From a phage, in assembly GCA_024674815.1 (NCBI GenBank), contig GCA_024674815.1_4104.1: a DNA stretch of 64,000 nucleotides. One strand, 5' to 3'. Each line of letters opens with the position of its first letter. Within the stretch, counting starts at the first letter, position 1. Under the pieces are notes generated by a model, which was given only the letters and a program-made list of their open reading frames with translations, was not told where the DNA came from and did not search any database. Below, one piece after another: positions 458 to 13,823 of the stretch. The position numbers and the translations under genes were made by a program.

Positions 458-481
458 TTTTATTTCTCTCTCTTTGTTAGG

Positions 482-541
482 AGGGGAACCATTCCCCTCG
501 CTTGATGTAAACTATTATACAGTACTAAGATACTTTGTCAA
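482..541 (-). promoter_or_regulatory. PeSL-like cassette: sigma70-type promoter + leader stem-loop
   Basis: minus strand reads TTGACA-16nt-TGTATAAT then hairpin AGGGGAAUGGUUCCCCU before SD/ATG. Confidence 0.6.
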
Positions 542-544
542 TAC

Positions 545-727
545 TTATTTTTTGGAAAGTTTACGCATTAATTCTACGCTTTCTTGTGAACGTTTTGCTA
601 CCTGGCAAGCTGCATGGACAGTAAACATTTTTGTATAGTCTGACGCTTTGCCACCGAACCGAGCGGCACGTTCACGGGCACTTGGAACTAATACTATTTC
701 TTTCTTGCAGATAGTGCACTTAGCCAT
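545..727 (-). CDS. small Cys-containing (zinc-ribbon-like) protein, 60 aa
   Basis: internal ATG downstream of hairpin; track start is GTG inside cassette; CxxC motif. Confidence 0.45.
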   Translation of the reverse strand: MAKCTICKKEIVLVPSARERAARFGGKASDYTKMFTVHAACQVAKRSQESVELMRKLSKK

Positions 728-750
728 TTTTATTTCTCTCTCTTTGTTAG

Positions 751-812
751 GAGGGGAACCGTTTCCCCTCACTCGATGTAAACTATTATACAGTACTAAG
801 ATACTTTGTCAA
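751..812 (-). promoter_or_regulatory. PeSL-like cassette (near-identical copy of 482-541)
   Basis: ~85-bp direct repeat flanking CDS 545-727; TTGACA/TGTATAAT/GC hairpin. Confidence 0.6.
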
Positions 813-815
813 TAC

Positions 816-1091
816 TTAATTATTGTAAATGTCGTGAATAGTGATAAAGTTTTTACGACCGTAAACCTGCAAATCAATATCAATGTAGTGCTTATCAAGT
901 ACATCCTCGACGCTTAACGCGGTGTCGTGAATATCTTCGTAGAATTGAGGATCTACAATCTTGCTTAAGTCATCCGGCGTTAACTCATCGTTAAGCCGTT
1001 GAACCGCCTGGATATCTGCTTCACGTTTCCAGTCTTCCAGGTTAGTAGTCAGTACTTGTTCGATTTCGTTAGCTGTCAGTAGAATCCGCAT
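816..1091 (-). CDS. hypothetical protein (91 aa)
   Basis: ATG ORF, promoter at 1125-1152. Confidence 0.55.
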   Translation of the reverse strand: MRILLTANEIEQVLTTNLEDWKREADIQAVQRLNDELTPDDLSKIVDPQFYEDIHDTALSVEDVLDKHYIDIDLQVYGRKNFITIHDIYNN

Positions 1092-1124
1092 TTTAATGTT
1101 TCCTTATCAGTGGTTGATGTAAGT

Positions 1125-1152
1125 ATTATACTCTTTTACTTTCTATTGTCAA
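1125..1152 (-). promoter_or_regulatory. sigma70-type promoter
   Basis: TTGACA-16-TATAAT on minus strand. Confidence 0.5.
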
Positions 1153-1162
1153 ACTATTTTAT

Positions 1163-1234
1163 CAGGGGAGTTTTTCGTATGTCTTACTCCTGGACTACTT
1201 AACGGGGTTACTTGTTTCGTTCCCCGTCCTGATG
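1163..1234 (-). other. conserved ~70-nt structured leader element (copy 1 of 3)
   Basis: two GC stems; near-identical at 11985-12060, diverged copy ~8825-8885. Confidence 0.4.
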
Positions 1235-1240
1235 TAAAAC

Positions 1241-1268
1241 ATTATACTTTATTCTAAGTACAATGCAA
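1241..1268 (-). promoter_or_regulatory. sigma70-type promoter
   Basis: TTGCAT-16-TATAAT on minus strand. Confidence 0.45.
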
Positions 1269-1365
1269 GTACTTTTTAAAAATAGTTTTCAGTACTAGCC
1301 ACCAGCAAACAATAGATACATTTATGCACCCTGTGGGCTGATTTGTTTCTATGCGTATATAATAG

Positions 1366-1397
1366 CAAAGGGACTGACCGGAGTCAATCCCTTTTTC
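1366..1397 (-). terminator. hairpin terminator (family with UUCG-type loop)
   Basis: GGGAUUGAC-UCCG-GUCAGUCCC, fully paired only in minus transcript (G-U wobble); short T-run. Confidence 0.45.
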
Positions 1398-1405
1398 AAA
1401 TATTT

Positions 1406-1555
1406 TTAAACTTCTTTCGGGTTGCGATAGGTGATAGCGTTCGGGTACATTTGTTTAATGTTATTCCATGCCTGGTTAACATTATAACCACTTGAGCGAA
1501 TCAGTTGGTTACTACCGACACCTTGAAACACTACTTCGAATAAGAATTCTTTCAT
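1406..1555 (-). CDS. small hypothetical protein (49 aa)
   Basis: hand-translated ATG ORF below track threshold; start overlaps stop of upstream ORF. Confidence 0.35.
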   Translation of the reverse strand: MKEFLFEVVFQGVGSNQLIRSSGYNVNQAWNNIKQMYPNAITYRNPKEV

Positions 1556-1725
1556 GCTTTCACCTCGCTATCTGCTTTACCTTTACGCCAGGACATTACT
1601 AATTGTTCGCGTTGCCATAAGTCGAGTGATACAAAAAGTTTTGCGGTATCACTTTTAGGATACTCTCCAGTAGTACCTAACCGATAAAACAGATCTTTCA
1701 GTACTGATAATTCTACTTGAATCAT
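1552..1725 (-). CDS. small hypothetical protein (57 aa)
   Basis: hand-translated; ATGA overlap with downstream ORF. Confidence 0.35.
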   Translation of the reverse strand: MIQVELSVLKDLFYRLGTTGEYPKSDTAKLFVSLDLWQREQLVMSWRKGKADSEVKA

Positions 1726-1831
1726 TTTATTACTCCTGATTGCGTTAATACTTCTACTATTGCATGAATGATCATAAGTACAGCTAAAACAATAATCATC
1801 GGATTCATTTGCATAAGCTGTACTCCTTATA

Positions 1832-2044
1832 TTAATCTTTCAGCCAATGATCTTGAATGAATTTTTCACCGTATCCCTGTTTCATGGATTCTAACAGGCG
1901 TTCGCGGTGAGCGGCGGCATATTGCTCAGTACTATGCGTTACGCCAGGCTGATAACGTGATACCCCATCCGGTCCGATGTATTGTACATCCCACGGTTTA
2001 GCGTTAGTATCAGACCATTTACGAACGATTAGTTGACCTTGCAT
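1832..2044 (-). CDS. hypothetical protein (70 aa)
   Basis: ATG ORF; cassette upstream. Confidence 0.55.
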   Translation of the reverse strand: MQGQLIVRKWSDTNAKPWDVQYIGPDGVSRYQPGVTHSTEQYAAAHRERLLESMKQGYGEKFIQDHWLKD

Positions 2045-2061
2045 TTTTCTTTCCTCTCAGT

Positions 2062-2121
2062 GGGGAGAATCATTTCTCCCCTTCATGTAACTTATTATAC
2101 AGTACTAGATTATCTTGTCAA
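2062..2121 (-). promoter_or_regulatory. PeSL-like cassette
   Basis: TTGACA-16-TATAAT; hairpin GGGGAGAAAUGAUUCUCCCC. Confidence 0.6.
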
Positions 2122-2127
2122 TAGTTT

Positions 2128-2451
2128 TTATTCACCTTGTTTGAATTTAGTTTTCTCCATTGATTCCATGATTGCAACCAATACACCGTGGATCTCGCTT
2201 AACGCGGAATCACTAAAAGCATTAATGAATAGTCGATCATTCTCGCGAATATTTTTAATGTACTTTTCAGCAGTAGTTGCGAATTCATTCAACGGTAGAT
2301 CAAATGCTTTATCCCATGATGGATGGCGTAATTGTAACAGTACTGGATTATCACGATCACCAGGGGAAAACGTACCAGTGATGAAACATACGCCCGGAAT
2401 ACTTTCGAACTGGCAACGGACTTCCTTTGTGATAGTAGTATGAATGTACAT
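2128..2451 (-). CDS. hypothetical protein (107 aa)
   Basis: ATG ORF, 27 nt after upstream gene (co-transcribed). Confidence 0.55.
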   Translation of the reverse strand: MYIHTTITKEVRCQFESIPGVCFITGTFSPGDRDNPVLLQLRHPSWDKAFDLPLNEFATTAEKYIKNIRENDRLFINAFSDSALSEIHGVLVAIMESMEKTKFKQGE

Positions 2452-2478
2452 TTATTGTTATCCTCTATTAAATTAATA

Positions 2479-2673
2479 TTACAGTTTATGAATCAATTCT
2501 TTATCTAAGCGATAGCGTACATTATTAATAGTAACGGCATTGTTTTTAATGCTACGCTGTACAGGTCCACCAGCAATAACAAATGTTGCTTTATTACCCC
2601 GAACAATGATAGCACTTCCAGGATTACCGAAATCATCTTGTACTAAAATACTTGATAAGTTTTCCATTTTCAT
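2479..2673 (-). CDS. hypothetical protein (64 aa)
   Basis: ATG ORF; cassette upstream. Confidence 0.5.
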   Translation of the reverse strand: MKMENLSSILVQDDFGNPGSAIIVRGNKATFVIAGGPVQRSIKNNAVTINNVRYRLDKELIHKL

Positions 2674-2685
2674 TTCCTCTTAGTA

Positions 2686-2742
2686 GGGGAAGATGTTTCC
2701 CCTTGATGTAAGTACTATAACACTACTGAAAACTAAATGCAA
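2686..2742 (-). promoter_or_regulatory. PeSL-like cassette
   Basis: TTGCAT-16-TTATAG, hairpin GGGGAAACAUCUUCCCC. Confidence 0.5.
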
Positions 2743-2745
2743 GTA

Positions 2746-3102
2746 CTATGATAAAATCATGATAGGATATTCACTATCGATCAGTACCTCGAATCCGAAA
2801 CCTTCGTACCATTCTTTAAGATTAAAGGCGTTATCTTCTCCCGTATCGCATTCTAAAATGATACAATCTGAATCATCGGCGGCATCAATAAAGGCATTCA
2901 TTAATTCGTTACCTTCACCATTGCCCCGACTATCAGGATCAACATAAAGAGAATCAATAAACGCTACACGGTCATAATCAAGATCCGGTGCAATGATTCC
3001 ACGTTTCACAAACCAGTACTGCAATTGTGCTACTTTGCCCTGTACTTGATAGCCAGTGATCTCGCCATTGTCAGTAGTACGCGTGATATGTTGTATTCCC
3101 AT
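2746..3102 (-). CDS. GNAT-like acetyltransferase fold protein (118 aa)
   Basis: motif VDPDSRGNGEGNELM resembles GNAT motif A. Confidence 0.45.
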   Translation of the reverse strand: MGIQHITRTTDNGEITGYQVQGKVAQLQYWFVKRGIIAPDLDYDRVAFIDSLYVDPDSRGNGEGNELMNAFIDAADDSDCIILECDTGEDNAFNLKEWYEGFGFEVLIDSEYPIMILS

Positions 3103-3131
3103 GATTACTATCCTCAGTTAAGATATAAAAC

Positions 3132-3159
3132 ATTATACACTATCTTTCAGTACTGTCAA
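3132..3159 (-). promoter_or_regulatory. sigma70-type promoter
   Basis: TTGACA-16-TATAAT. Confidence 0.5.
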
Positions 3160-3165
3160 TACTTT

Positions 3166-3423
3166 TTATCTCATAGATCTATGCCAACAATTACGCGGAT
3201 CTCTTTTAAAAGTACTATCATGATCCTCCTGGCAAGTAATACAATACATGCACCCTATAACGGCCTGGCGTCGATTCTCAGGGATTTTATCGCCGCAGTC
3301 GAGGCAATGTACTAGTGATTCTCTTTGTGCGTTAATTTGCTTTCTAGCGTGGTTAACGGCTGCCTGAATCACTGCATGAATCTCGTCTTGTTCGGCCCCG
3401 TCTTTCGCGTATCCTACTGCCAT
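3166..3423 (-). CDS. TraR/DksA-family C4 zinc-finger protein (85 aa)
   Basis: CLDCG...x17...CMYCITCQ (CxxC-x17-CxxC). Confidence 0.6.
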   Translation of the reverse strand: MAVGYAKDGAEQDEIHAVIQAAVNHARKQINAQRESLVHCLDCGDKIPENRRQAVIGCMYCITCQEDHDSTFKRDPRNCWHRSMR

Positions 3424-3584
3424 TATTTTAACCTCATTATAAAAATACTATAGTACTGTAATGCTACAATAATACTACTAGTGCTAATCTTATTCAAACC
3501 ATATGATACTACATATCCACCAGCATTACCACGGATAGTAACTCCTTTGTACTGTCTATATAAATTCAACTGCGTATATTGCCT

Positions 3585-3657
3585 TTGATCAAGAATTGAT
3601 CAGAATTATACGCCTTATGCTAAATTGATCCAGTACTTTTTTGATCATTTATTGATC
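3585..3657. repeat. cluster of five TTGATC motifs (GATC-rich tract)
   Basis: 5 copies of TTGATC in 73 bp in an ORF-free leader. Confidence 0.5.
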
Positions 3658-3719
3658 GATATTATATAGTTACATTTGTGCACCCTATGGGTTAGTGACG
3701 TTCTCGTCTTGATGTAAGT

Positions 3720-3748
3720 ATTATGCCAGTACTGGATAATATTGTCAA
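3720..3748 (-). promoter_or_regulatory. sigma70-type promoter followed by conserved leader motif
   Basis: TTGACA-17-CATAAT; motif CACTAACCCAUAGGGUGC ~25 nt downstream. Confidence 0.5.
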
Positions 3749-3752
3749 TAGA

Positions 3753-3950
3753 TTATTTTAATTTTTTTCTGTCATTGATTAATGCTTTCAGTACTATACT
3801 AATAACTTGCAATGATTCATCAATGACAATGAAATTATTCTCTTTCATTAGATGATAGTTACCATTGATTGTATATTCTAACGAGTACTGTTTACGTTTA
3901 ATTTTTGATAATGTTTCTATTTGTTTTTGTACTGATTTCATGCTAATCAT
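3753..3950 (-). CDS. hypothetical protein (65 aa)
   Basis: track start is TTG; first ATG at 3950 used. Confidence 0.45.
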   Translation of the reverse strand: MISMKSVQKQIETLSKIKRKQYSLEYTINGNYHLMKENNFIVIDESLQVISIVLKALINDRKKLK

Positions 3951-4055
3951 TGTCAAACGTCCTGTAACGCATTCTAACGAGATAAACGGTTTAGTACTGG
4001 CATTGTATAGGGTAAATGATTAAAGCCCACCAGCGTTGACCAGTGGGCTATAATC

Positions 4056-4199
4056 TTACATCTTGCGGATAATCTTAACAGTATCTTTCACCGATTTACC
4101 GTCTTGCTGACATTGCTCGATCATCGCGTATTGTTCTGCGGTCAGATCCTCGCCAGTTTTTGCCAGTACTGCGTCGATGAATGAATCCAGTGCGATCAT
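4056..4199 (-). CDS. small hypothetical protein (47 aa)
   Basis: hand-translated ATG ORF; TTGACA-17-TATAAT promoter upstream. Confidence 0.35.
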   Translation of the reverse strand: MIALDSFIDAVLAKTGEDLTAEQYAMIEQCQQDGKSVKDTVKIIRKM

Positions 4200-4289
4200 T
4201 TTATTTCTCTCTTAGGTTAAGTTAACTACTGTTTATAAAACTTATTATACAGTACTATCAAACTATGTCAATAGTACTGGTAATATATT

Positions 4290-4469
4290 TTAGCGGTAGT
4301 CGTCGTATGCTTTATTCACCTGGCGAATATAACTTTCAAAGGCTTCGTCTACCGTTTCATACTCCCGAACATAATCACCATATGAAACTACATACATACC
4401 TTTTTGATCTTCAAACGTCATGATGATAGAATCCAGACCAACGATTTCAGTTTTTGCGATGATAGCCAT
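4290..4469 (-). CDS. small hypothetical protein (59 aa)
   Basis: hand-translated ATG ORF with upstream promoter. Confidence 0.4.
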   Translation of the reverse strand: MAIIAKTEIVGLDSIIMTFEDQKGMYVVSYGDYVREYETVDEAFESYIRQVNKAYDDYR

Positions 4470-4551
4470 TTTTAATTCCTTAATAGTGTAGTTGATAAAA
4501 GTTATTATGTCAGTACTATCAAACTATGTCAATAGTACTGTGATAATATTT

Positions 4552-4764
4552 TTAGTTAATGATAGTCAGTGTAAAATTGTAATCACCGCAGCGATATAGC
4601 ACGTTATTCCCAAATGTTCCAACTAATCGCACATCACACAAAACGCCGGTTTTTTCTTTTACTTCCTTGATACTTGTAACTCCTGTAATATCTTTATTAA
4701 AGTATTCATGATCTGAAAATAAAACTTGTTTTGCATTTTTTAATTTCGACCGGATATTAGCCAT
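4552..4764 (-). CDS. hypothetical protein (70 aa)
   Basis: ATG ORF; cassette upstream. Confidence 0.5.
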   Translation of the reverse strand: MANIRSKLKNAKQVLFSDHEYFNKDITGVTSIKEVKEKTGVLCDVRLVGTFGNNVLYRCGDYNFTLTIIN

Positions 4765-4784
4765 TTTGTTTTCTCTCTGTTAGT

Positions 4785-4844
4785 GGGGAGAATCATTTCT
4801 CCCCTTGATGTAAACTATTATACAGTACTATAATCTATTGTCAA
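4785..4844 (-). promoter_or_regulatory. PeSL-like cassette
   Basis: TTGACA-16-TATAAT; hairpin GGGGAGAAAUGAUUCUCCCC. Confidence 0.6.
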
Positions 4845-4859
4845 ACTATTTTTTTAATA

Positions 4860-5201
4860 TTATTCAAAATCTTCCGGTACTGACTGATAATCATCTTCAC
4901 CGTATGCACTTTCTAACCGCTCGCCAGTGTGATCATCAGTTAGTGAGTCATCCTCATAGTTCACGTCTACGCCAGTGATGTAAAACTGGCTATCGTCTGG
5001 ATCATTGAAATTAATTTTCTGTATGTTTACAATAACTGTATTGATACCCAGGACACTGCCATCAGCCGTTACAAAGTACTGATATTTTTCACAACCGCCT
5101 GAATTGAAACCGTAATTAATTTCGGCCCGACCATCATTTAAACGCAGTGCCTGGGCGATGATTTCATTTTCAAAGTTAGATTGAGCAATTGAGATAGTCA
5201 T
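4860..5201 (-). CDS. acidic hypothetical protein (113 aa)
   Basis: ATG ORF, D/E-rich. Confidence 0.55.
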   Translation of the reverse strand: MTISIAQSNFENEIIAQALRLNDGRAEINYGFNSGGCEKYQYFVTADGSVLGINTVIVNIQKINFNDPDDSQFYITGVDVNYEDDSLTDDHTGERLESAYGEDDYQSVPEDFE

Positions 5202-5221
5202 GATTTGTTTCCTTATTACCA

Positions 5222-5280
5222 GGGGAAACCGTTTCCCCTTTCGATGTAAAACATTATACGCTTATCAGGAAGTAATGCAA
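5222..5280 (-). promoter_or_regulatory. PeSL-like cassette
   Basis: TTGCAT-15-TATAAT; hairpin GGGGAAACGGUUUCCCC. Confidence 0.55.
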
Positions 5281-5283
5281 GTA

Positions 5284-5751
5284 CTATTTCACGTTAATTT
5301 CAAAGTACTGCTCTTTGATGTTTTCCTGTTGGTAAATCTCGTTTAATGCTTTAAGATCTAAAACCTGTTTACCTGCTGCCTGAATATACTTTTTAAGAGT
5401 CGCTAACAGCTTCTCAGGCGTGTTTGTAGTCTTACGTGTTGGGATCTTATCGTGCCCCATAGCGTAGTACTGCTTACGTGCTATAGTACTGATAACACTG
5501 CGGTACGGTTCCATGATCAGCTTGTCTGTGTATTCGTCGCTATCCCCAAACTTCATACCGTGGATCGCAAAGGTCATCATCATGCGGTCGTTATCGCGGA
5601 TATTGTGGGGGCAGTCGGCAAGCTCGCGAGTCAGTGACATAGTGATCCCCACGTCGCCACCCAGCGGTAAAGGTCGGGCGATAAAGAAACCGTTAGGGAA
5701 TACTTTCAGGAAGTTTTCTTGAACTGCTGCGACGAATTCGATGCTATTCAT
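5284..5751 (-). CDS. hypothetical protein (155 aa)
   Basis: ATG ORF. Confidence 0.6.
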   Translation of the reverse strand: MNSIEFVAAVQENFLKVFPNGFFIARPLPLGGDVGITMSLTRELADCPHNIRDNDRMMMTFAIHGMKFGDSDEYTDKLIMEPYRSVISTIARKQYYAMGHDKIPTRKTTNTPEKLLATLKKYIQAAGKQVLDLKALNEIYQQENIKEQYFEINVK

Positions 5752-5771
5752 AATTCATTTCCTTAATTAGT

Positions 5772-5831
5772 GGGGGAAGTTGTTTCCCCTCTCGATGTAA
5801 AACATTATACGCTTATTGAGATAGTTTGCAA
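5772..5831 (-). promoter_or_regulatory. PeSL-like cassette
   Basis: TTGCAA-16-TATAAT; hairpin. Confidence 0.55.
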
Positions 5832-5944
5832 GTACTTTCTACAAATACTTTTAAAATAGTTTTCAGTACTCAAACATTATACAATAGATACACTCCTGCA
5901 CCCTGTGGGCTAGTGAGCTATCTCTCAATGAATATATAATAGCA

Positions 5945-5975
5945 AACTGGCTGACCGAAGTCAACCACTTTTTCA
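5945..5975 (-). terminator. terminator hairpin with UUCG loop, TTGACT -35 embedded
   Basis: GGUUGAC-UUCG-GUCAGCC in minus transcript; TATTAT 17 nt downstream. Confidence 0.5.
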
Positions 5976-6110
5976 TTTATTTTTAGCTTTTAGAATCGCC
6001 GCCTTTCGCGTCATGCCTTGCTTGATGTACTCCTTTACTTTCGCTTTTTTAGCGTTTACCTTGTCTGCTTTCGTTTTAGGAGTACTGTAAATTATACCGT
6101 TAGGATTCAT
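5973..6110 (-). CDS. small basic protein (45 aa)
   Basis: hand-translated ATG ORF, Lys-rich. Confidence 0.3.
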   Translation of the reverse strand: MNPNGIIYSTPKTKADKVNAKKAKVKEYIKQGMTRKAAILKAKNK

Positions 6111-6196: not shown

Positions 6197-6349
6197 TCAT
6201 TTTTTAGCCTGAAAGTAATGTTTAATTTGAGCGGCGGTCAGTGCACAATTACGCAGGAAGTTTTCTGTATAACTTTTGCGAGTACTGAAAGAGAATTGAC
6301 CTTTGCCGTTACCGATAGTAACATCAAACCGAGCGTTGTATTGTTTCAT
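6197..6349 (-). CDS. small hypothetical protein (50 aa)
   Basis: ATG with AGGAGA SD; track start is an AUG inside the leader hairpin. Confidence 0.4.
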   Translation of the reverse strand: MKQYNARFDVTIGNGKGQFSFSTRKSYTENFLRNCALTAAQIKHYFQAKK

Positions 6350-6367
6350 TTTGATTCTCCTGTTATT

Positions 6368-6427
6368 GGGGAGAATCATTTCTCCCCTTCATGTAAACTA
6401 TTATACAGTACTAAAAACTAATTGCAA
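6368..6427 (-). promoter_or_regulatory. PeSL-like cassette
   Basis: TTGCAA-16-TATAAT; hairpin. Confidence 0.55.
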
Positions 6428-6430
6428 GTA

Positions 6431-6577
6431 TTATTTTTTAGATTTACGTAAACTTTCTACCATCTCAGGAGTAAGCCCCAGCGGGTAGGAAACCACTTCA
6501 TCCACAAAACGCAAAGGGAATACCCCATCTAAAGTTGAACGTGCTTTCTTATTAGTACTCTTTTTTGATGCTTTCAT
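6431..6577 (-). CDS. small hypothetical protein (48 aa)
   Basis: hand-translated ATG ORF; cassette upstream. Confidence 0.4.
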   Translation of the reverse strand: MKASKKSTNKKARSTLDGVFPLRFVDEVVSYPLGLTPEMVESLRKSKK

Positions 6578-6646
6578 TTCATATTCCTTAATTAGTGGGG
6601 AGAACTATTTCTCCACTTCATGTAAACTATTATACAGTACTAAAAA

Positions 6647-6856
6647 CTAATTGCAAGTATTATTTTCTAAAAAATGTTTGTATGCTGAATCAACAACTCT
6701 TTCGATAACATACGCTAACGGCACGTATCCAACTACATGACTACAATAAAAAGGACTACGATTAGAATCATCGTATGCAAATACTTTTTCAGGATCTGCA
6801 TCAATCACATACATATTAACCTTTAAGATGTCGATCTTATCCTGTACAGTAAGCAT
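6647..6856 (-). CDS. hypothetical protein (69 aa)
   Basis: ATG ORF. Confidence 0.5.
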   Translation of the reverse strand: MLTVQDKIDILKVNMYVIDADPEKVFAYDDSNRSPFYCSHVVGYVPLAYVIERVVDSAYKHFLENNTCN

Positions 6857-7534: not shown

Positions 7535-7678
7535 TTACTTACTTTTTGCTTTCTTGATTGCTTCCACCTGGTCGGCCCATTCTTTACCCCATACTTGTAA
7601 ATTATAATGGTACTGGCAAAGAGCAACGCCCCGCTTTAAACCCGTAATAGATTTCTGACCACATTGACAAGTTTTCAT
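7535..7678 (-). CDS. small Cys-rich protein (47 aa)
   Basis: hand-translated; C-x-C ... C-x2-H pattern. Confidence 0.4.
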   Translation of the reverse strand: MKTCQCGQKSITGLKRGVALCQYHYNLQVWGKEWADQVEAIKKAKSK

Positions 7679-7695
7679 ATTAGTTTCCTTGTAGT

Positions 7696-7756
7696 GGGGA
7701 GAACCATTTTCTCCCCTTGATGTAATGTATTATACTTTATTCGATTTACTTTGCAA
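7696..7756 (-). promoter_or_regulatory. PeSL-like cassette
   Basis: TTGCAA-16-TATAAT; hairpin GGGGAGAAAAUGGUUCUCCCC. Confidence 0.55.
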
Positions 7757-7765
7757 GTACTTTTT

Positions 7766-7993
7766 TTAATTTAATTCATCAAGGCAAAGGATACGCTCAA
7801 CGCCCAAATCAGTTAAACTAATCGACGGCACTTGATAGGTTTCAATGTATGCTACACTTGCCCACTGACCGAACTCATTAACGGCCCAGGTATTCATTGC
7901 ATTTTGCAATTCCGCACCTTCCTTGTTGGTAATGACTGCAACTACTTGTTCGTTGCCAGTAGTACCAGATACGCGAGTAATGATAATAGCCAT
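7766..7993 (-). CDS. hypothetical protein (75 aa)
   Basis: internal ATG downstream of cassette hairpin. Confidence 0.5.
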   Translation of the reverse strand: MAIIITRVSGTTGNEQVVAVITNKEGAELQNAMNTWAVNEFGQWASVAYIETYQVPSISLTDLGVERILCLDELN

Positions 7994-8230
7994 TGTTTTG
8001 ATTCCTTTGATTTGGAAGGAGAACCGTTTCCCCCTCTCGATGTAAAACATTATACGCTAATCTCTTAATCGTGCAAGTACTTTTTATTACTTTTTGCAAA
8101 ATACTTTAAACGCTCTCAATCGCGTTCTTACAGCCTTAACGCCACCAGCTAGGGCAATGCATCAGATAATCAGTTTAATGCGTTAGAATCGTTTCTAGGC
8201 GGTGCTGGTGGCATGGTAAACTATAAACAC

Positions 8231-8256: not shown

Positions 8257-8278
8257 TAGTGATTCAATACTTTAATTG

Positions 8279-8761
8279 TTATGCTTCAACTTTGCGATGA
8301 GCTTCGATCCATTCCTCGCGAGTCATACCGCTTTCTTTGATAGCGTCCAGTACTACCGCAATGCAGTTACCGCGTACAGGAATCAAATGTTCTTCACCGT
8401 TATCAAGTACTACAGTAACACGTTCTTGAATCCATTTTTTAGGTTTAGATTCCGGCTTATCTTCACCGTACTTAACCGCCAGGGCTTTATGTGCCATTTC
8501 AACAACCACTTCCAGATCCAATCCAGACACCGCCGCCTGGATACTTTCAATTGTTGCTTGCAGTTCGGCTTCACGGGCTTTTTTCTGTTCTTCCAGTTCT
8601 GCTACCTTTTTGGCTTGTAATTCTTTCGCTTCACTGTAAGCAATGTTAAAATTGTTGCGTACAGCTTTCATGGTATCGTTATCCAGGTCAGCCAGCAATT
8701 CAGCAGCAATAACAGTATCGTTTGAAATCAGTGCTTTCAGGAATGATTTTACATTAGCCAT
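8279..8761 (-). CDS. hypothetical coiled-coil protein (160 aa)
   Basis: ATG with GAGGA SD; track start is TTG. Confidence 0.6.
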   Translation of the reverse strand: MANVKSFLKALISNDTVIAAELLADLDNDTMKAVRNNFNIAYSEAKELQAKKVAELEEQKKAREAELQATIESIQAAVSGLDLEVVVEMAHKALAVKYGEDKPESKPKKWIQERVTVVLDNGEEHLIPVRGNCIAVVLDAIKESGMTREEWIEAHRKVEA

Positions 8762-8956
8762 TTTATAAATCCTCAATTAAAGTTTAGTTTACGTTTATTA
8801 GTGTATCAAAGTTTTATCGACGTGTCCAGTTTTTCGTTCGACTTACTGGCGGTCTACTTAGTGCTCCCCGTCTTGATGTAATACATTCTACGCCTTTTTG
8901 TGGTAATGTCAACTACTTTTTTAAAACTATTTTTAAAGTATGCAGTACTACAAAAC

Positions 8957-8982
8957 AAAAAAGCCCACTGTTTAAGGTGGGC
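8957..8982 (-). terminator. intrinsic terminator (copy of 8231-8256)
   Basis: same hairpin + U-run. Confidence 0.6.
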
Positions 8983-9000
8983 TAGTGATTCAGTACTATA

Positions 9001-9300
9001 TTATAAACAGTTAATTACTCCGGTGTGCGTTACTTTCTCAGTATCCATAACCGTGACCGATCCACGCTTAGTACTTGCATCATAATAAATTGTTGTGCTA
9101 CCGTTTTCGTCTTCTTCATGGAACGGCCCGTTTTTAAATGCTTCTGGCTGGATCTCTAAATCCTTTAAAACAATCTCGCCTGTACTTTCATTGGTCATCG
9201 CTACCGTGCACTGAATGAATTTTTCACTACTTACATCTAACGACGCATTAACAGCGAAAGAGGAAACAGATAAAGCCAGGGCGATGATTGCAATTTTCAT
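9001..9300 (-). CDS. secreted/periplasmic small protein (99 aa)
   Basis: N-terminal signal-peptide-like MKIAIIALALSVSSFA. Confidence 0.6.
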   Translation of the reverse strand: MKIAIIALALSVSSFAVNASLDVSSEKFIQCTVAMTNESTGEIVLKDLEIQPEAFKNGPFHEEDENGSTTIYYDASTKRGSVTVMDTEKVTHTGVINCL

Positions 9301-9320
9301 TTGATTATCCTTAGTTACCA

Positions 9321-9379
9321 GGGGAAACCGTTTCCCCTTGCGATGTAAAATATTATACAGTACTAAAAACTAATTGCAA
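9321..9379 (-). promoter_or_regulatory. PeSL-like cassette
   Basis: TTGCAA-16-TATAAT; hairpin. Confidence 0.55.
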
Positions 9380-9384
9380 GTACT

Positions 9385-9621
9385 TTATGATTTTTTATAA
9401 AACATTTCGGCAGTGATATTTTTACCCGTTGGTTGTACTTTATCCAGAATTTTTTGATGCCCTGGCCGTCCAAATGAATATGATCCGTAAACCGTAAACC
9501 AGTAGTTACCCTCAGTGTTTACATGTACAGCACAATAGGGAACGCCCCGCGATTCATCACCAATAAAGTGTGATACCGTTCCCGTTACATTAGCAGACGT
9601 TGATTTGATTTGTTCAAGCAT
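9385..9621 (-). CDS. hypothetical protein (78 aa)
   Basis: ATG ORF; cassette 9643-9694. Confidence 0.5.
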   Translation of the reverse strand: MLEQIKSTSANVTGTVSHFIGDESRGVPYCAVHVNTEGNYWFTVYGSYSFGRPGHQKILDKVQPTGKNITAEMFYKKS

Positions 9622-9728
9622 TTTCTTATTCCTTAGTTACCAGGGGAACCGCTCCCCTATGCAAAACATTATACGCGTTTAAAAACTATTAGCAAGTATT
9701 TTAATAAAAAGTATTTGAAAAATAGTTG

Positions 9729-9757
9729 TTGACAAGTGCATCCAGTACTGGCATAAT
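9729..9757 (+). promoter_or_regulatory. plus-strand sigma70-type promoter
   Basis: TTGACA-17-CATAAT on plus strand, no ORF downstream. Confidence 0.5.
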
Positions 9758-9763
9758 TACTAC

Positions 9764-9868
9764 ATCAAGACGAAACAGTCACTAACCCACCGGGTGCCGA
9801 GATCCGTCTATTAAATGATTCAGTACTGAAAAAGTAACGGGGAGTTATTATCTCCCCGCGTTGTTATT
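9764..9868 (+). ncRNA. candidate ~100-nt small RNA
   Basis: promoter 9729-9757, conserved CACUAACCCACCGGGUGC motif, hairpin+U-run terminator 9838-9870. Confidence 0.3.
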
Positions 9869-10085
9869 TGGTAAGGTATAAACAGAAGTCACCTTTATTT
9901 GCTACGCCGCCAGTGTAACGCGATGAATAGTTAGAAATATCTTGTACTTCTGCTATTACCAGTGTATCATCATTCATTTCGTCGCAGAAGCAAACGGCTG
10001 GATCTTTTACGCCGATATTGTCTGCATGTTCCCGCATAGATTTAACCAGTGCTTCCAGTTGAGAAAGAGTAGTGATATTAGCCAT
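9864..10085 (-). CDS. hypothetical protein (73 aa)
   Basis: ATG with GAGGA SD; cassette 10105-10163. Confidence 0.5.
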   Translation of the reverse strand: MANITTLSQLEALVKSMREHADNIGVKDPAVCFCDEMNDDTLVIAEVQDISNYSSRYTGGVANKGDFCLYLTK

Positions 10086-10169
10086 TTTATTTTCCTCATT
10101 ACCAGGGAGAACCATTTCTCCCCTTGATGTAAACTATTATACAGTACTAAAAACTAATTGCAAGTACTT

Positions 10170-10358
10170 TTAATTAAATTCCATAAAATCATTTTCAACG
10201 TGCACAACAATCTGATTATTTTTAAAGGACGCAGAAAACTCTATACAATCATAAACCGCTTTTTCTGTTACCAGACTATGAGCACCAATCGGATTAATTG
10301 GGGATTGAATTGTTTCAATCTCGTTACCTTGTTCATTAACGATTAAAATATTAAACAT
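10170..10358 (-). CDS. hypothetical protein (62 aa)
   Basis: ATG ORF. Confidence 0.45.
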   Translation of the reverse strand: MFNILIVNEQGNEIETIQSPINPIGAHSLVTEKAVYDCIEFSASFKNNQIVVHVENDFMEFN

Positions 10359-10397
10359 TGCCGTTACTCCTGGATAGTGTTAACTCGATATAAAGTA

Positions 10398-10580
10398 TTA
10401 TACGCCTTTATTGCTTAGTGTCCAGTGATCACGCATCATACGCCCCGCACGATCCCAGCTAGTAGGCATGGGTATGCCTTGCAATTCGTTAGGGGAGATC
10501 TCGACCTCGATCCCTACATCAATAACAGTCATTCCAGCTTTCGCAGCTTGCTCGCGGATAACCTCAGATAATGTTGTCAT
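10398..10580 (-). CDS. hypothetical protein (60 aa)
   Basis: ATG ORF. Confidence 0.45.
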   Translation of the reverse strand: MTTLSEVIREQAAKAGMTVIDVGIEVEISPNELQGIPMPTSWDRAGRMMRDHWTLSNKGV

Positions 10581-10654
10581 GATTAAAGCTCCTGGATAGT
10601 GTTAACTCGATATAAAGTATTATACAGTACTGAAAACTAATTGCAAGTACTTTT

Positions 10655-10915
10655 TCAATATTGTTTGTCGTTGTCTTCCTCGATGAATTGACCGACGAAA
10701 TGATCTACTTTCGCTTTGAGGCTTTTATAATCTTCTTCTACTTCCTTTAAACGTTCCTGGTAGTATTCCAGGGCTTGAATATACGCCGCCTCAGCAGTTT
10801 TTGCACGCATAGCTAAATTCATTCCACGCGTTTCATCAAATAGCCAATAACCATCGGTGCAATGACTGATAGATAATGATTTACTTAGTACTGTATAGGC
10901 AATTACTTTACTCAT
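10655..10915 (-). CDS. hypothetical protein (86 aa)
   Basis: ATG ORF. Confidence 0.5.
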   Translation of the reverse strand: MSKVIAYTVLSKSLSISHCTDGYWLFDETRGMNLAMRAKTAEAAYIQALEYYQERLKEVEEDYKSLKAKVDHFVGQFIEEDNDKQY

Positions 10916-10972
10916 TAGATAACCCTCAGTAAAGGCGGGAACTATTACCCGCCATTATCTCAGTACTGAATA

Positions 10973-11212
10973 TTACATTCCAACCATTGCAGCACGGATC
11001 GCAGTAGTGCTATACTTAAAGCCGTCCGGCGTTGTAGTAGTACCGTTGGCTTTTAATCTGCGGTACATACATTCCGCAGCAATATCTTTAGTTCTACTTT
11101 GTGCGATGCAACTTTGAGCAAGCCGATACAATGACTCACCGTTATTAATCCAAAGGCTTACATTCCAATGAGTTTTGTTTTTGTGTCCGTTGTAAGTTTT
11201 AGTACTAGCCAT
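10973..11212 (-). CDS. hypothetical protein, paralog A of 13014-13253 (79 aa)
   Basis: shared GHKNKTHWNVSLWINN and TPDGFKYSTTAIRAAMVGM termini. Confidence 0.55.
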   Translation of the reverse strand: MASTKTYNGHKNKTHWNVSLWINNGESLYRLAQSCIAQSRTKDIAAECMYRRLKANGTTTTPDGFKYSTTAIRAAMVGM

Positions 11213-11230
11213 TTTTAAATCCTCGTTTGA

Positions 11231-11290
11231 GCGGGGAACCACTCCCCGCCTCGATATAAAGTATTATACGCTTTTAAACTTAGTTTGCAA
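11231..11290 (-). promoter_or_regulatory. PeSL-like cassette
   Basis: TTGCAA-16-TATAAT; hairpin GCGGGGAGUGGUUCCCCGC. Confidence 0.55.
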
Positions 11291-11302
11291 GTACTTTTTA
11301 AA

Positions 11303-11914
11303 TTAATATTCGATTGATTCCACTACTCCATCAATAACATTGAATTGATATTCGTTACCCTCAATCAGTGCTGTAATGTTTTCAGTAGTGAATTGATCCT
11401 CATATGCATTCTCTAAATCACGGTACAACTTGCGGGATAATTCACGAATAGTTTCAGTGAGTAGTTCCTCAAGCTCATTAACTAACGTTTCTTGTTTTGC
11501 GGTTAAATCAGTGTAAGCCGATTCAATGTACCCGCTTACAGTATTCTCATGCGAGTAGTGGGAGTGCGAACGCTTTACACTCATCGCCAAATCATCTTCA
11601 TTCAGCAAGTGACGGATTGAGCGATACTTAGTTAATGCTCTTACCTTGCGTAAAAACTTCACTGCGTCAACGTGGTCAGTACTGATTGATGCACCGTCAC
11701 CCTGGGACCAAAAGCCACTGAATCGTAAATCAGCGTCAGTAATGCCATATTCCGGTAGTACTGTTTCTTTATAGTATTCAATTTCACTTTCAGAAAAATA
11801 ATCATCGTTTAAGTTTTTTTCACGTTCCCGAACCAGTTCGATAGCTGACGTTTGTTGTTCTGCGTTCAATTCAGAAAAAGCCATAACATAAGTAGTAGTA
11901 GTGATAGTTTTCAT
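11303..11914 (-). CDS. acidic hypothetical protein (203 aa)
   Basis: ATG ORF, D/E-rich. Confidence 0.6.
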   Translation of the reverse strand: MKTITTTTYVMAFSELNAEQQTSAIELVREREKNLNDDYFSESEIEYYKETVLPEYGITDADLRFSGFWSQGDGASISTDHVDAVKFLRKVRALTKYRSIRHLLNEDDLAMSVKRSHSHYSHENTVSGYIESAYTDLTAKQETLVNELEELLTETIRELSRKLYRDLENAYEDQFTTENITALIEGNEYQFNVIDGVVESIEY

Positions 11915-11984
11915 TTTGTAACCCTCATTCAGTAGTTGATGTAAGTATTATACGCTTTTAAAAACAATTGTCAAACTATTTTAT

Positions 11985-12060
11985 CAGGGGAGTTTTTCGT
12001 GTGCCTTACTCCTGGGCTACTTAATGGGGAGTTACTTATTTCGTTCCCCGTCCTGATGTA
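11985..12060 (-). other. conserved structured leader element (copy 3)
   Basis: near-identical to 1163-1234. Confidence 0.4.
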
Positions 12061-12139
12061 AAACATTATACGCCTTTAAACATAGTTTGCAAGTACTTTT
12101 TAAAAATAGTTTTCTGTACTGAATAGTAAAAAAAAAGTA

Positions 12140-12168
12140 TTGACAGCATTATCAAGTACTGGCATAAT
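12140..12168 (+). promoter_or_regulatory. plus-strand sigma70-type promoter
   Basis: TTGACA-17-CATAAT; conserved motif downstream. Confidence 0.5.
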
Positions 12169-12283
12169 ATACCCCATGACAACAGCTAACCCACCGGGTG
12201 CACAATTGTAACTGTAATAAACTACTTTTTCTATAGATACACTCCCGCACCCTATGGGCTACGGCTTATCTGCCAATGAATAC

Positions 12284-12312
12284 ATTATGCCAGTACTGAC
12301 AAAATAAGTCAA
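12284..12312 (-). promoter_or_regulatory. minus-strand promoter convergent with 12140-12168
   Basis: TTGACT-17-CATAAT; conserved motif downstream. Confidence 0.5.
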
Positions 12313-12342
12313 TACCGGCAATTGTAAAGATTTGTAAACTGC

Positions 12343-12573
12343 TTATACTGCAATCGCGTCCAGGCTGTAATAATAATAAGTGCCGTATTGGTGTACTTTA
12401 TTACCTTTTATTTCAGTACTGAATGAATCCGAACGGTTTGCATATGATGTTAATTTAAAGTACTTTGATTTGCTGATACGTTGCCATACACCACAGATCC
12501 GCTGTAAGTAAGTAGTTTTATTCGTGGTAGTATCTTTTACGGTTTTAACTTCAGTCATATACATATTAGTCAT
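12343..12573 (-). CDS. hypothetical protein (76 aa)
   Basis: ATG ORF; cassette 12595-12653. Confidence 0.5.
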   Translation of the reverse strand: MTNMYMTEVKTVKDTTTNKTTYLQRICGVWQRISKSKYFKLTSYANRSDSFSTEIKGNKVHQYGTYYYYSLDAIAV

Positions 12574-12660
12574 TTTTATTACTCCAGGTTATAGGCGGGA
12601 AGAGTTCCCGCTCTCGATGTAAAACATTATACGCCTTTAAACATAGTTTGCAAGTACTTT

Positions 12661-12927
12661 TTATTCAAGTACTGCAATCTTTTTAGTACGGTACACGGTC
12701 ACGCGGTTGCCCTTTCGGTCGAGCTTTATTTCTACCACTCGACGCGATACACTATCGGGACTTTTTAAGGCCGCTAACCAGTACTGTAATGATCTGGCGG
12801 TACTACGCTTTACAATGGCCCAACGTTTACCACGTTCCGATTGTACGCCCATATCTTTAAACGTTGCCCCGTCCTGGCGAGCGGCGATCCGAGCTTGTTC
12901 ACGCGTCGCAAAATACTTAATATTCAT
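12661..12927 (-). CDS. basic hypothetical protein (88 aa)
   Basis: internal ATG; track start is GTG in promoter. Confidence 0.45.
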   Translation of the reverse strand: MNIKYFATREQARIAARQDGATFKDMGVQSERGKRWAIVKRSTARSLQYWLAALKSPDSVSRRVVEIKLDRKGNRVTVYRTKKIAVLE

Positions 12928-13013
12928 GCTGTTGCCCTTATCGTTGGTGTATGAATAAAACACTATTATAAAGTACTATCGCAAAAAAATGATAGTACTT
13001 TAAATAAATTCTA

Positions 13014-13253
13014 TTACATTCCAACCATCGCCGCACGGATCGCAGTAGTGCTATATTTGAATCCGTCCGGTGTTTTATCTTGTCCAGTCTGTTCTAAAAA
13101 TAACATCATATGACGGGCCGCATCATTGCGATTAGTGCTATCGTTAATAAAGTCCTGGGCCAACCGGTATAATGATTCATCGTTATTAATCCAAAGGCTT
13201 ACATTCCAATGAGTTTTGTTTTTGTGACCTAAGAACATTTTTGATTTAGCCAT
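13014..13253 (-). CDS. hypothetical protein, paralog B of 10973-11212 (79 aa)
   Basis: conserved termini, variable middle; cassette 13273-13330. Confidence 0.55.
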   Translation of the reverse strand: MAKSKMFLGHKNKTHWNVSLWINNDESLYRLAQDFINDSTNRNDAARHMMLFLEQTGQDKTPDGFKYSTTAIRAAMVGM

Positions 13254-13345
13254 TTTTTAATCCTCTTATATAGTGGGGAACTATTCCCCACCTGATGTAA
13301 AACATTATACGCTTTTAAACTTAGTTTGCAAGTACTTTATTAAAC

Positions 13346-13708
13346 TTATTTGTAAATTTTGCCACTGTCAGCCCATACCAGGAAACGAGGCATATTATCC
13401 CATGCATCTTGTTTTAAGTTTAAGCCGTGCAATTCCTCAGTTGTTGCCATCCCTGGTACTGGCTTACTACACACCGCGAAATTTTCGCCCATGTACTGAT
13501 AAACCATCGTTAAATCATTTGAGATCATTACATGGATCATTGAATCAAGCATCAAAGTAGCGGCGTATTGTTCACGCTTAAGCGGCAACATTGCAATAAG
13601 TTCCCGATAAGCTGCAATGTGAATTTTTACAGTTTCAGCCGGAAGACCTTTCATCTCATCGCGGAAGTTTACCAGGTTAAGCATGATTTTATTGATTTGA
13701 GTCGCCAT
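13346..13708 (-). CDS. hypothetical protein (120 aa)
   Basis: internal ATG after cassette hairpin 13733-13749. Confidence 0.55.
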   Translation of the reverse strand: MATQINKIMLNLVNFRDEMKGLPAETVKIHIAAYRELIAMLPLKREQYAATLMLDSMIHVMISNDLTMVYQYMGENFAVCSKPVPGMATTEELHGLNLKQDAWDNMPRFLVWADSGKIYK

Positions 13709-13823
13709 CGTTTTAATCTCTCTTAATGTGTAGCGGGAAGTGTTCCCGCTCTCGATGTAAAACATTATACGCTTTTATCAGTACGGTGCAAGTACTTTCT
13801 ACAAATACTTTTAAAATAGTTTT

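Follow-up and report, generated by a model that had tools for sequence, protein, structure and literature searches.

Promoter-early-stem-loop elements (PeSLs) were defined in phages RB49 and phi1 as repeated motifs of hyperplastic regions (Arbiol et al. 2010, PMC2839356). They consist of an AT-rich flank, a sigma-70 consensus promoter, a poly-G/poly-C stem-loop, a Shine-Dalgarno sequence (SD) and a start codon (PMC2839356). The stem-loop was interpreted as a terminator or attenuator, demonstrated in one case, and recombination between PeSLs yields insertions and deletions (indels) as well as mini-circles (PMC2839356). In the phage pairs T4/PST and KVP40/nt-1 the stem-loops are found just upstream of the promoter (Comeau et al. 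2014, PMC4122927). Here we describe a family of cassettes of related composition, each with a promoter, a hairpin and a ribosome-binding site, in contig GCA_024674815.1_4104.1; the whole 64,000-nucleotide stretch that was analysed is referred to below as the window. Judged by its closest matches, the window comes from an Asteriusvirus-type jumbo coliphage related to 121Q, PBECO4, G17 and JP4. An initial annotation of the sequence had pointed to promoter and stem-loop cassettes beside the small early genes and had called them PeSL-like; we confirm the observation and find partial support for the interpretation. In our view these units are probably portable expression cassettes for immediate-early genes of the RaK2/121Q-type jumbo phages, combining a leader hairpin that acts in the RNA with homology for recombination.

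Anatomy of the cassettes

Eighteen units of a single layout are present on the minus strand between positions 455 and 13,791, and a nineteenth stands apart at 43,178-43,255 (Table 1). The unit is about 85 bp long and opens with an A-rich flank ending in AAGTAC, with the A-rich motif AAAAAGTAC upstream in all 18 copies. This is followed by a -35 box that is TTGCAA, TTGACA or TTGCAT/C (the copy at 9619..9695 is tabulated with TTGCTA), a spacer of 16 nt, or 17 nt in one copy, and a -10 box that is TATAAT in all copies except one with TATAGT. The stretch between the -10 box and the hairpin is conserved as R-TTTACATC-RAG. The hairpin itself has a loop of 3-5 nt and a stem of 6-9 bp that begins 8-16 nt past TATAAT and is G-rich in the 5' arm and C-rich in the 3' arm; after roughly 8-12 nt it gives way to an SD-like AGGA/GAGG motif and then the ATG, which is 17-23 nt from the end of the stem. 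In 145 copies, taken from the window and from five Asteriusvirus relatives, the -10 box and the stem are again separated by 8-16 nt, mostly 12-14 nt with a mode of 12, and the end of the stem and the ATG mostly by 17-23 nt.

The initial annotation had thus located the cassettes correctly, and its example hairpin, GGGGAGAAAUGAUUCUCCCC, is indeed present three times (4804-4785, 2081-2062 and 6387-6368). The stems are longer than the 5-7 bp that it gave, and of its description of the spacer the length of 16-17 nt holds, whereas the ending AGTACTG is seen in only 8 of the 18 copies, the rest having ..AAGCG or similar.

The cassettes far exceed chance expectation. When positions 1-14,000 were scanned for at least 10 of 12 matches to TTGACA-N16-18-TATAAT, 30 sites were found on the minus strand and five on the plus strand, against a mean of 4.6 and a maximum of 12 in 200 dinucleotide shuffles. 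At 13 of the minus-strand sites the promoter is joined by a perfect GC-rich stem of 6 bp or more that starts 8-16 nt past the -10 box, a combination seen in none of the 200 shuffles; the count of 18 permits TTGCAT or TTGCAC as the -35 box and a G.U pair or one mismatch in the stem. A scan at 9 of 12 matches was uninformative (77 sites versus 54 expected), the signal being confined to the stricter threshold and to the minus strand.

Selection on the stem

Transcription is expected to start 7-8 nt after TATAAT, a prediction from usual promoter spacing. Folded from this position, all 19 leaders form one 5'-proximal hairpin (-7 to -16 kcal/mol) and leave both the SD and the AUG unpaired. A plain MAFFT alignment of whole cassettes left the 3' arms out of register and was unusable for counting pairs, and it was replaced by a covariance model built from seven equal-length copies. 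Within the window the matches to this model are confined to 475-13,297, and others are found in the corresponding regions of relatives. In the covariance-model alignment of 85 distinct copies 98.2% of the cells are a standard pair, and four of the eight stem pairs have changed on both sides. Such changes account for 74 cells compared with 13 +/- 8 in shuffles, none of 500 shuffles reaching as high, and every pairing measure collapses when the partner is slid by 1-3 columns. The alignment of copies that the initial annotation had proposed reveals both pairing and compensatory changes, and on this comparison the stem is under selection.

Hairpins are present at the cassettes of the Asteriusvirus relatives, and the architecture is kept beyond that genus, in line with the conservation that the initial annotation anticipated. 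In the Klebsiella phages RaK2 and Muenster, both of the genus Alcyoneusvirus, the promoter, hairpin and SD have the same spacing and the stem sequences are unrelated to those of the window (GGGGATACA/TGTATCCCC, GGGAATGAA/TTCATTCCC, AGAGATTCCA/TGGAATCTCT and GGGGCAA/TTGCCCC).

The stems also have a direction. All 48 distinct hairpins of the family that were chosen for a G-rich 5' arm have a C-rich 3' arm, and an unfiltered listing of stems downstream of these promoters contains no C-first stem. Under a rule that treats the two alike, an internal G.U is found in seven distinct hairpins and an internal A.C in none; the hairpin at 8036-8015, for example, has two G.U pairs, which pair only in the sense RNA. 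A first count under symmetric scoring, 14 G.U against 8 A.C, was discarded as it was contaminated by over-long stems. Taken together, the G-first polarity and the asymmetry between G.U and A.C suggest that the hairpin works at the level of RNA, in the sense transcript. Searches against Rfam gave no match in the whole window at gathering scores, and only chance-level matches in 1-16,000 at E-values up to 1.

The cassettes as sites of recombination

The ends of 52 megablast blocks between positions 1-14,000 and five relatives were merged to 30 distinct breakpoints. Promoter cassettes, although they make up 27% of the sequence, hold 21 of these breakpoints (binomial p about 1e-6), and hairpin cassettes, at 14% of the sequence, hold 14 (p about 2e-5). 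One breakpoint, at 10170-10180 beside the cassette 10083..10163, is common to four relatives. The comparison of gene order with relatives that was put forward in the initial annotation thus places most breakpoints in the cassettes, and in JP4 it also uncovers chimeric ones.

The first of these concerns the cassettes at 455-541 and 725-812, which, as had been noted, are near-identical and flank one gene; they have an exact block of 41 bp in common. JP4 lacks the gene between them and has instead a single chimeric cassette, in which the upstream flank resembles the 725-812 copy and the leader and downstream gene resemble the 455-541 copy, with the crossover within the 41-bp identical block spanning the promoter. 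Similarly, the 155-aa gene at 5284-5751 is missing from JP4 and three other relatives, and the single cassette that JP4 has in place of the 5199-5831 unit combines the spacer of the 5749-5831 copy with the hairpin of the 5199-5280 copy, the crossover being within the 21-bp block GCGTATAATGTTTTACATCGA. Both mapped JP4 crossovers are in the promoter and initial-transcript block, not in the hairpin. An overlapping-flank signature of this kind is also seen in CRJP21 (~6437-6591) and in vB_Ec-M-J (~10,171-10,608); CRJP21 lacks the gene at 6431-6577, which in the window is driven by the cassette 6575..6656, and has one cassette there.

Exchange is not limited to close relatives. A73, a 142-kb phage of the Vequintavirinae, has two of the cassettes and their genes in common with the window (84% identity over 517 bp), and its matches to 7539-8055, 4489-5120, 10973-11212 and 13014-13266 are to small early genes and cassettes at 73-84% nucleotide identity. 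This sharing indicates that the modules cross between unrelated groups of coliphages, the jumbo and the rV5-like phages. On these comparisons the cassettes behave like PeSLs as recombination modules.

Function of the hairpin

The hairpin lies past the expected +1 and so inside the transcript of its own cassette, with an unpaired 5' tail of about 4-7 nt. The chief alternative to a leader structure is the function ascribed to canonical PeSLs, that of a factor-independent terminator or attenuator that limits read-through from upstream promoters. PeSL stem-loops likewise have the form G(n)-loop-C(n), and one of them reduced lacZ expression about as much as rrnB T1 (PMC2839356); read-through would also build up from tandem promoters that have no terminators between them. 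In addition, one homologous leader hairpin of G17, followed by TTT, is annotated as a terminator by ARNold. That hairpin is, however, the only leader hairpin among the ten ARNold terminators in the counterpart stretch of G17, where the TTT appears to be a chance occurrence and the other nine are T-run hairpins. In the window none of the 18 leader hairpins is followed by a T-run (the tails are ACTAAC, TGGTAA, CCTAAC and similar) and none passes a terminator scan that requires one, whereas genuine T-run terminators in the same region, at 9859-9837, 8983-8962 and 8257-8236, do pass. Moreover, an efficient terminator downstream of its own expected start would abort its own message, and it is on all these grounds that the hairpin is read as a leader structure. 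From its sequence the hairpin is unlikely to be an efficient terminator, and the terminator or attenuator function as a whole also seems unlikely to us. The initial annotation was right that the hairpin follows the promoter, 8-16 nt past the -10 box, and has no U-run, and its term 5'-terminal leader structure stands as far as the position past the expected start and the missing U-run are concerned; the word 5'-terminal goes further, the start being one that we infer and some 4-7 unpaired nucleotides preceding the stem.

A second possibility is that the hairpin serves as an operator or recognition RNA that marks immediate-early messages for a phage or host factor. The factor could be a shut-off protein like RegA or RegB, or the hairpin could resemble nut/put elements in modifying the transcribing polymerase. 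The fixed position, together with the conserved GGG(G)..(C)CCC base of the stem and the ACAUCRAG 5' flank in two genera, would fit such a role, and GGAG, which is the core of the RegB site of T4 (PMC3014915), is found in many of the stems. Against it, the loops are not conserved (23 different ones among 48 distinct hairpins), the inner stem sequences are wholly different between the genera, structure protects GGAG from RegB (PMC3014915), and no candidate binding protein was identified in the present analysis. We regard this role as quite doubtful. Much the same small likelihood is given to a more far-reaching version, in which the hairpin and the ACAUCRAG flank would be a regulon-wide RNA tag of immediate-early messages for a dedicated factor and the AGTACT palindromes described below would be the matching DNA operators; such a factor might be a shut-off or processing protein encoded by the phage, or might act in cis to modify the host polymerase during transcription. 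If this were true the cassette would be a complete, transferable regulatory module for early genes and not a passive stabiliser.

Two more specific ideas were set aside. For an RNase III site of the T7 kind the 6-9-bp stems are too short, given the substrate requirements of that enzyme, and as targets of RegB the hairpins are unsuitable because their GGAG is paired and structure protects against the enzyme.

A role in the DNA only, with the GC palindrome as a recombination hot spot (a cruciform or nuclease target) or a gene-conversion repeat without any part in the RNA, is very improbable, for although several hairpins resemble chimeras of two stem types, such as GGGGGAA with TTCTCCC, the G-first polarity is strict, sense-strand mismatches are G.U and never A.C, the spacing to the -10 box and the ATG is fixed, and the two mapped crossovers lie in the promoter and initial-transcript block outside the hairpin.

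A portable expression cassette with a leader hairpin, which is the reading that we prefer, would work as follows. Host sigma-70 RNA polymerase would initiate at the near-consensus promoter, made up of the A-rich flank, TTGACA/TTGCAA, the 16-nt spacer and TATAAT, and some 4-7 nt into the transcript the RNA would fold into the G-first, C-last hairpin of 6-9 bp. The end of the hairpin, 17-23 nt before the ATG, would coincide with the 5' edge of the ribosome (30S) footprint and leave the SD unpaired. In this position it may hinder the 5'-end-dependent decay that RNase E and RppH carry out, keep the ribosome site of read-through transcripts insulated from the sequence upstream, and stop 3' exonucleases after cleavage of upstream messages. 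Decay that depends on RNase E and RppH is slowed by a hairpin close to the 5' end, and the scanning of RNase E is blocked by structure. RNase E is a major actor in the turnover of T4 early mRNA (PMC3014915). Recombination would insert, delete and swap modules of a cassette and its open reading frame (ORF), both within the lineage and into unrelated coliphages, the ~40-90 bp that are nearly alike before many unrelated ORFs providing the homology.

Several points weigh against this reading. The hairpin is not obligatory, as about 12 early promoters of the region lack one, and a tail of 4-7 nt is, according to what Belasco and colleagues are said to have found, at or beyond the length for full protection by a 5' hairpin. 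The folding z-scores of single leaders are modest (-0.6 to -3.7), so that the case for the stem rests on comparison; the covariation alignment was in turn fitted to the structure of the model, and many of the copies are kin by descent or recombination, which biases the covariation figures towards structure. In six of the seven G.U cases the pair is at one and the same position (GGGGGAA with TTCTCCC), and these perhaps go back to few events, for which reason the asymmetry is taken as suggestive only. Since mosaicism gene by gene would also cluster breakpoints between genes, it is only the chimeric single cassettes that specifically support exchange from cassette to cassette. The searchable literature on this phage and its close relatives yielded no transcription-start, half-life or expression data, and in RB49/phi1 a PeSL stem-loop of the form G(n)-loop-C(n) strongly reduced the expression of downstream lacZ (PMC2839356).

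Genomic setting and gene content

Positions 1-14,000 matched 202 of 50,697 phage records by megablast, the best being those of the 121Q/PBECO4/G17/JP4 group at 90-96% identity, split over many pieces. The relatives match the region that holds 18 of the 19 cassette copies in patches only. Bases 1 to ~15,400 of the window correspond to the ~21-kb direct terminal repeat annotated in relatives. In vB_Ec-M-J the counterpart of the early region sits within an annotated 21.5-kb direct terminal repeat, the genes of which are directed inward from the left genome end, and the records of both CRJP21 and vB_Ec-M-J start at the equivalent of window position ~15,435. Klebsiella phage Muenster has a 20-kb terminal repeat of the same build. 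Given these annotations, the finding concerns the small-gene array of the terminal repeat, which is plausibly the region first transcribed by the host polymerase. The related phage PA5oct is dependent on host RNA polymerase and strongly transcribes its terminal-repeat region (PMC7318152). PA5oct also has two abundant non-coding RNAs in its terminal repeat.

The cassette region has about 40 minus-strand genes, of which 18 have a full cassette, so that the initial statement that almost every small gene is preceded by one was too broad; about 12 further promoters come without the hairpin, and the other genes lack a promoter of their own. The products of the cassette genes are ORFans: seven of ten have no Pfam match at an E-value of 0.01 or below, and the other three comprise one with only a sub-threshold match to DUF4969 and two DUF7249 paralogues. 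No tRNA or tmRNA was found by a scan for these.

The loops of the hairpins often include AUG (AUGA or AUGG; for example 10115-10113), and the mechanical list of ORFs consequently begins some genes inside the -10 box or the hairpin (13765, 10115 and 11242). The true starts of such genes are 17-23 nt past the stem, and the automatic annotation of relatives may carry the identical error.

Beyond the cassettes, 14000-15700 is a non-coding stretch that corresponds to the extreme left genome end in relatives. It contains short direct repeats (GGCTAAACGGCTAGAT and GGATGGCTGGATGGCTAGACGG), duplicated ATTGATTCAGTACTGAATAATAGTACTCCTATATAGAAAGA units and convergent promoter-like sites, and may be linked to the genome terminus or to packaging.

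Other repeats in the window

With 267 occurrences in the window, where base composition predicts 21.8, the palindrome AGTACT shows a genome-wide excess of 12- to 21-fold. Its commonest context is CAGTACTG, it is present at 9-33 copies per 4-kb bin, and inside long ORFs it is found in each of the three frames (47, 15 and 18). JP4, RaK2, Muenster and an IMG/VR contig have it in 13- to 21-fold excess, the unrelated A73 in an excess of only 2.4-fold. AGTACT adjoins the -35 box and precedes the -10 box in most early promoters, and is at the apex of several Alcyoneusvirus leader hairpins. It could be a protein-binding or modification site.

Three further classes of repeat have stem-loops of their own (Table 1). 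One is a conserved non-coding unit downstream of its own sigma-70 promoter, in which a short hairpin with an A-rich loop is followed after 4-5 nt by a near-invariant core, CCCAYMGGGTGC, then six variable nucleotides and GTATCTAT. Its stem covaries (GAG/CTC, GGC/GCC, GACG/CGTC, GAC/GTC, ACCAC/GTGGT, AGCA/TGCT, CCA/TGG and others). Ten copies are found in Muenster and four in comparison sequence L007; the unit is found in both Asteriusvirus and Alcyoneusvirus, with 73-83% identity, and Rfam has no match for it. It is a candidate small RNA or leader element. Another is a long leader of about 75 nt (GACGGGGAACGAAACAAGTAACCCCGTTAAGTAGTCCAGGAGTAAGACATACGAAAAACTCCCCTGAT) between two tandem promoters, with a predicted closing helix AUCAGG/CCUGAU and two inner hairpins; its core, AAGTAGNCC..GTAAGNC..ACGAAAA, is kept in A73 and Muenster. 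RNAalifold gave weak consensus structures for this leader and for the CCCAYMGGGTGC element because MAFFT failed to register the variable hairpins.

The last is a composite with the order AAAGG(G)-TTGACT-TCGG-TCAGCC(C)-TTTTTGC-TATAAT. It is an intrinsic terminator whose hairpin has a UUCG loop and is followed by a T-run; the 5' arm of the hairpin is the -35 box of the next promoter, and the T-run forms the spacer. On the plus strand, a repeat of GCCAGTAC..GTACTGGC with a T-run opens, in each of its copies, a paralogous gene starting MLPFG/ARM, and it looks like a terminator with an AT-rich, T4-late-like promoter before a plus-strand gene family.

Table 1. Cassettes and other repeated elements of the window. 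The number after each -10 box is the position of its first base unless a range is given.
Feature	Position	Strand	-35; -10	Hairpin	ATG	Remarks
Cassette	13706..13791	-	TTGCAC; TATAAT 13769-13764	13750-13732 (AGCGGGAA cac TTCCCGCT)	13708	SD
Cassette	13251..13331	-	TTGCAA; TATAAT 13309	13292-13272 (GGTGGGGAA tag TTCCCCACT)	13253	DUF7249 protein
Cassette	12571..12653	-	TTGCAA; TATAAT 12631	12611-12595 (GCGGGAA ctc TTCCCGC)	12573	
Cassette	11210..11290	-	TTGCAA; TATAAT 11268	11250-11230 (GGCGGGGAG tgg TTCCCCGCT)	11212	DUF7249 paralogue
Cassette	10083..10163	-	TTGCAA; ..AGTACTG TATAAT 10141	10123-10104 (GGGGAGAA atgg TTCTCCCT)	10085	outer G.U
Cassette	9619..9695	-	TTGCTA; TATAAT 9673	9659-9641	9621	
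Cassette	9298..9379	-	TTGCAA; ..AGTACTG TATAAT 9357	9338-9320 (AGGGGAAA cgg TTTCCCCT)	9300	
Cassette	7991..8076	-	TTGCAC; TATAAT 8054	8036-8015 (GAGGGGGAA acgg TTCTCCTTC)	7993	common to A73, with gene
Cassette	7676..7756	-	TTGCAA; TATAAT 7734	7716-7696 (GGGGAGAA aatgg TTCTCCCC)	7678	common to A73
Cassette	6575..6656	-	TTGCAA; ..AGTACTG TATAAT 6634	~6616-6597 (GTGGAGAA atag TTCTCCCC)	6582 or 6577	one mismatch in stem
Cassette	6347..6427	-	TTGCAA; ..AGTACTG TATAAT 6405	6387-6368 (GGGGAGAA atga TTCTCCCC)	6349	
Cassette	5749..5831	-	TTGCAA; TATAAT 5809	5789-5773 (GGGGAA acaac TTCCCC)	5751	upstream copy of cassette-ORF-cassette unit
Cassette	5199..5280	-	TTGCAT; TATAAT 5258	5239-5221 (AGGGGAAA cgg TTTCCCCT)	5201	downstream copy of same unit
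Cassette	4762..4844	-	TTGACA; ..AGTACTG TATAAT 4822	4804-4785 (GGGGAGAA atga TTCTCCCC)	4764	
Cassette	2671..2742	-	TTGCAT; TATAGT 2719	2703-2685 (AGGGGAA acatc TTCCCCT)	2673	17-nt spacer
Cassette	2042..2121	-	TTGACA; ..AGTACTG TATAAT 2099	2081-2062 (GGGGAGAA atga TTCTCCCC)	2044	
Cassette	725..812	-	TTGACA; ..AGTACTG TATAAT 790	770-751 (GAGGGGAA acgg TTCCCCTC)	727	upstream copy of near-identical pair
Cassette	455..541	-	TTGACA; ..AGTACTG TATAAT 519	499-481 (GAGGGGAA tgg TTCCCCTC)	457	downstream copy of near-identical pair
Lone outlying cassette	43178..43255	-	TTGACA; ..AGTACTG TATAAT 43233	43218-43198 (GGGGATGA acttc TCATCCCT)	43180	
CCCAYMGGGTGC unit	near 5909, 1337, 12258, 3691, 14196	-				also Muenster (L008)
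CCCAYMGGGTGC unit	near 9786, 12190, 14344	+				
Long leader	11972-12092, 1150-1272, 8790-8912	-				also A73 (L006) 2413-2512; Muenster (L008) 4041-4142
Second composite class	51834, 48591, 48408, 47066, 45981, 41410, 40128, 38710, 5964, 1387	-				positions of -35 boxes
GCCAGTAC..GTACTGGC and T-run, then TATTAAATATAGTATAATGAATAAAGGAGG and ATG	21731, 22979, 24160, 27872, 28682, 29896	+				six copies

Comparison with known systems

Hairpins close to the 5' end of a message are best known from stabilisers of the ompA 5' untranslated region (UTR) type, and the cassettes resemble these in having a sequence-independent hairpin near the 5' end followed by an accessible ribosome site. The ompA stem-loop was reportedly found to stabilise its mRNA by Emory, Bouvet and Belasco in 1992, and Richards and Belasco are said to have reported in 2019 that structures block RNase E scanning. 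The cassettes differ in that stabilisers of this type protect best with 0-4 unpaired 5' nucleotides, whereas about 4-7 are predicted for the cassettes. With lambda nut boxB and HK022 put the cassettes share a short hairpin encoded just downstream of early promoters. The function of boxB needs a conserved loop and put needs two specific stem-loops, while the loops of the cassettes vary freely and the element is present in 18 copies, one per gene.

Among the repeats of the window itself, the terminator-promoter composites (TTGACTTCGGTCAGCC-T5-GC-TATAAT, 10 copies) are similar as composite repeats with a stem-loop, but theirs is a true T-run terminator for upstream transcription and lies outside the downstream leader. 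With its stem-loop over the -35 box, this second composite class is nearer to a published PeSL subclass than the leader-hairpin cassettes are.

The closest likeness of the cassettes is nevertheless to the PeSLs. Each kind of unit is ~70-100 bp long and combines an AT-rich flank, a near-consensus sigma-70 early promoter and a G(n)-loop-C(n) stem-loop with an SD and a start codon; copies of either recur ahead of ORFans in a hyperplastic region; and in both, close relatives differ by indels of a cassette and its ORF, with crossovers within the cassette. What sets the present cassettes apart is that the stem-loop is 8-16 nt past the -10 box and would be transcribed, whereas the published ones are upstream of, inside or overlapping the promoter, or at most a little ahead of the start site, where they can act on transcripts from upstream only, and that the present ones belong to the Asteriusvirus/Alcyoneusvirus jumbo lineage and are situated in a terminal repeat. 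Nor is there detectable sequence homology to RB49-type cassettes: a blastn search with a 96-nt cassette against the 50,697 phage records found RaK2-type jumbo phages and a few Vequintavirinae-like phages, and no T4-type phage. A pattern scan of IMG/VR added only seven loci, mostly 121Q itself. The label PeSL-like is accordingly apt for composition and shuffling, and does not extend to the position of the hairpin or its presumed function; as composition, setting and shuffling are shared and position, lineage and homology are not, the cassettes are classed as a variant of the PeSL.

A term search found no mention of promoters in the genome papers of Sharanji, JP4, UE-S1 and fEgEco12, and the CBB paper lists RpoD-like promoters, with stem-loops unmentioned. 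Literature searches on RaK2 promoters, on 121Q/PBECO4 promoters and on AGTACT in phages turned up no description of the cassettes or of the AGTACT excess. What is known, then, is the PeSL concept in T4-type phages, and what is new is a positional variant with the hairpin in the transcribed leader. The PeSL idea is thereby carried over from T4-type phages to the largest coliphages and the early region in their terminal repeat, and the same modules are seen to enter a phage subfamily that is unrelated. About 30 early transcription units, given in current annotations only as 'hypothetical protein', are marked by the cassettes, which are also ready-made strong expression modules. By being placed inside the leader, the hairpin separates two roles that are merged in PeSLs, those of recombination substrate and of transcript-level structure, and both become testable on a compact element of ~85 bp.

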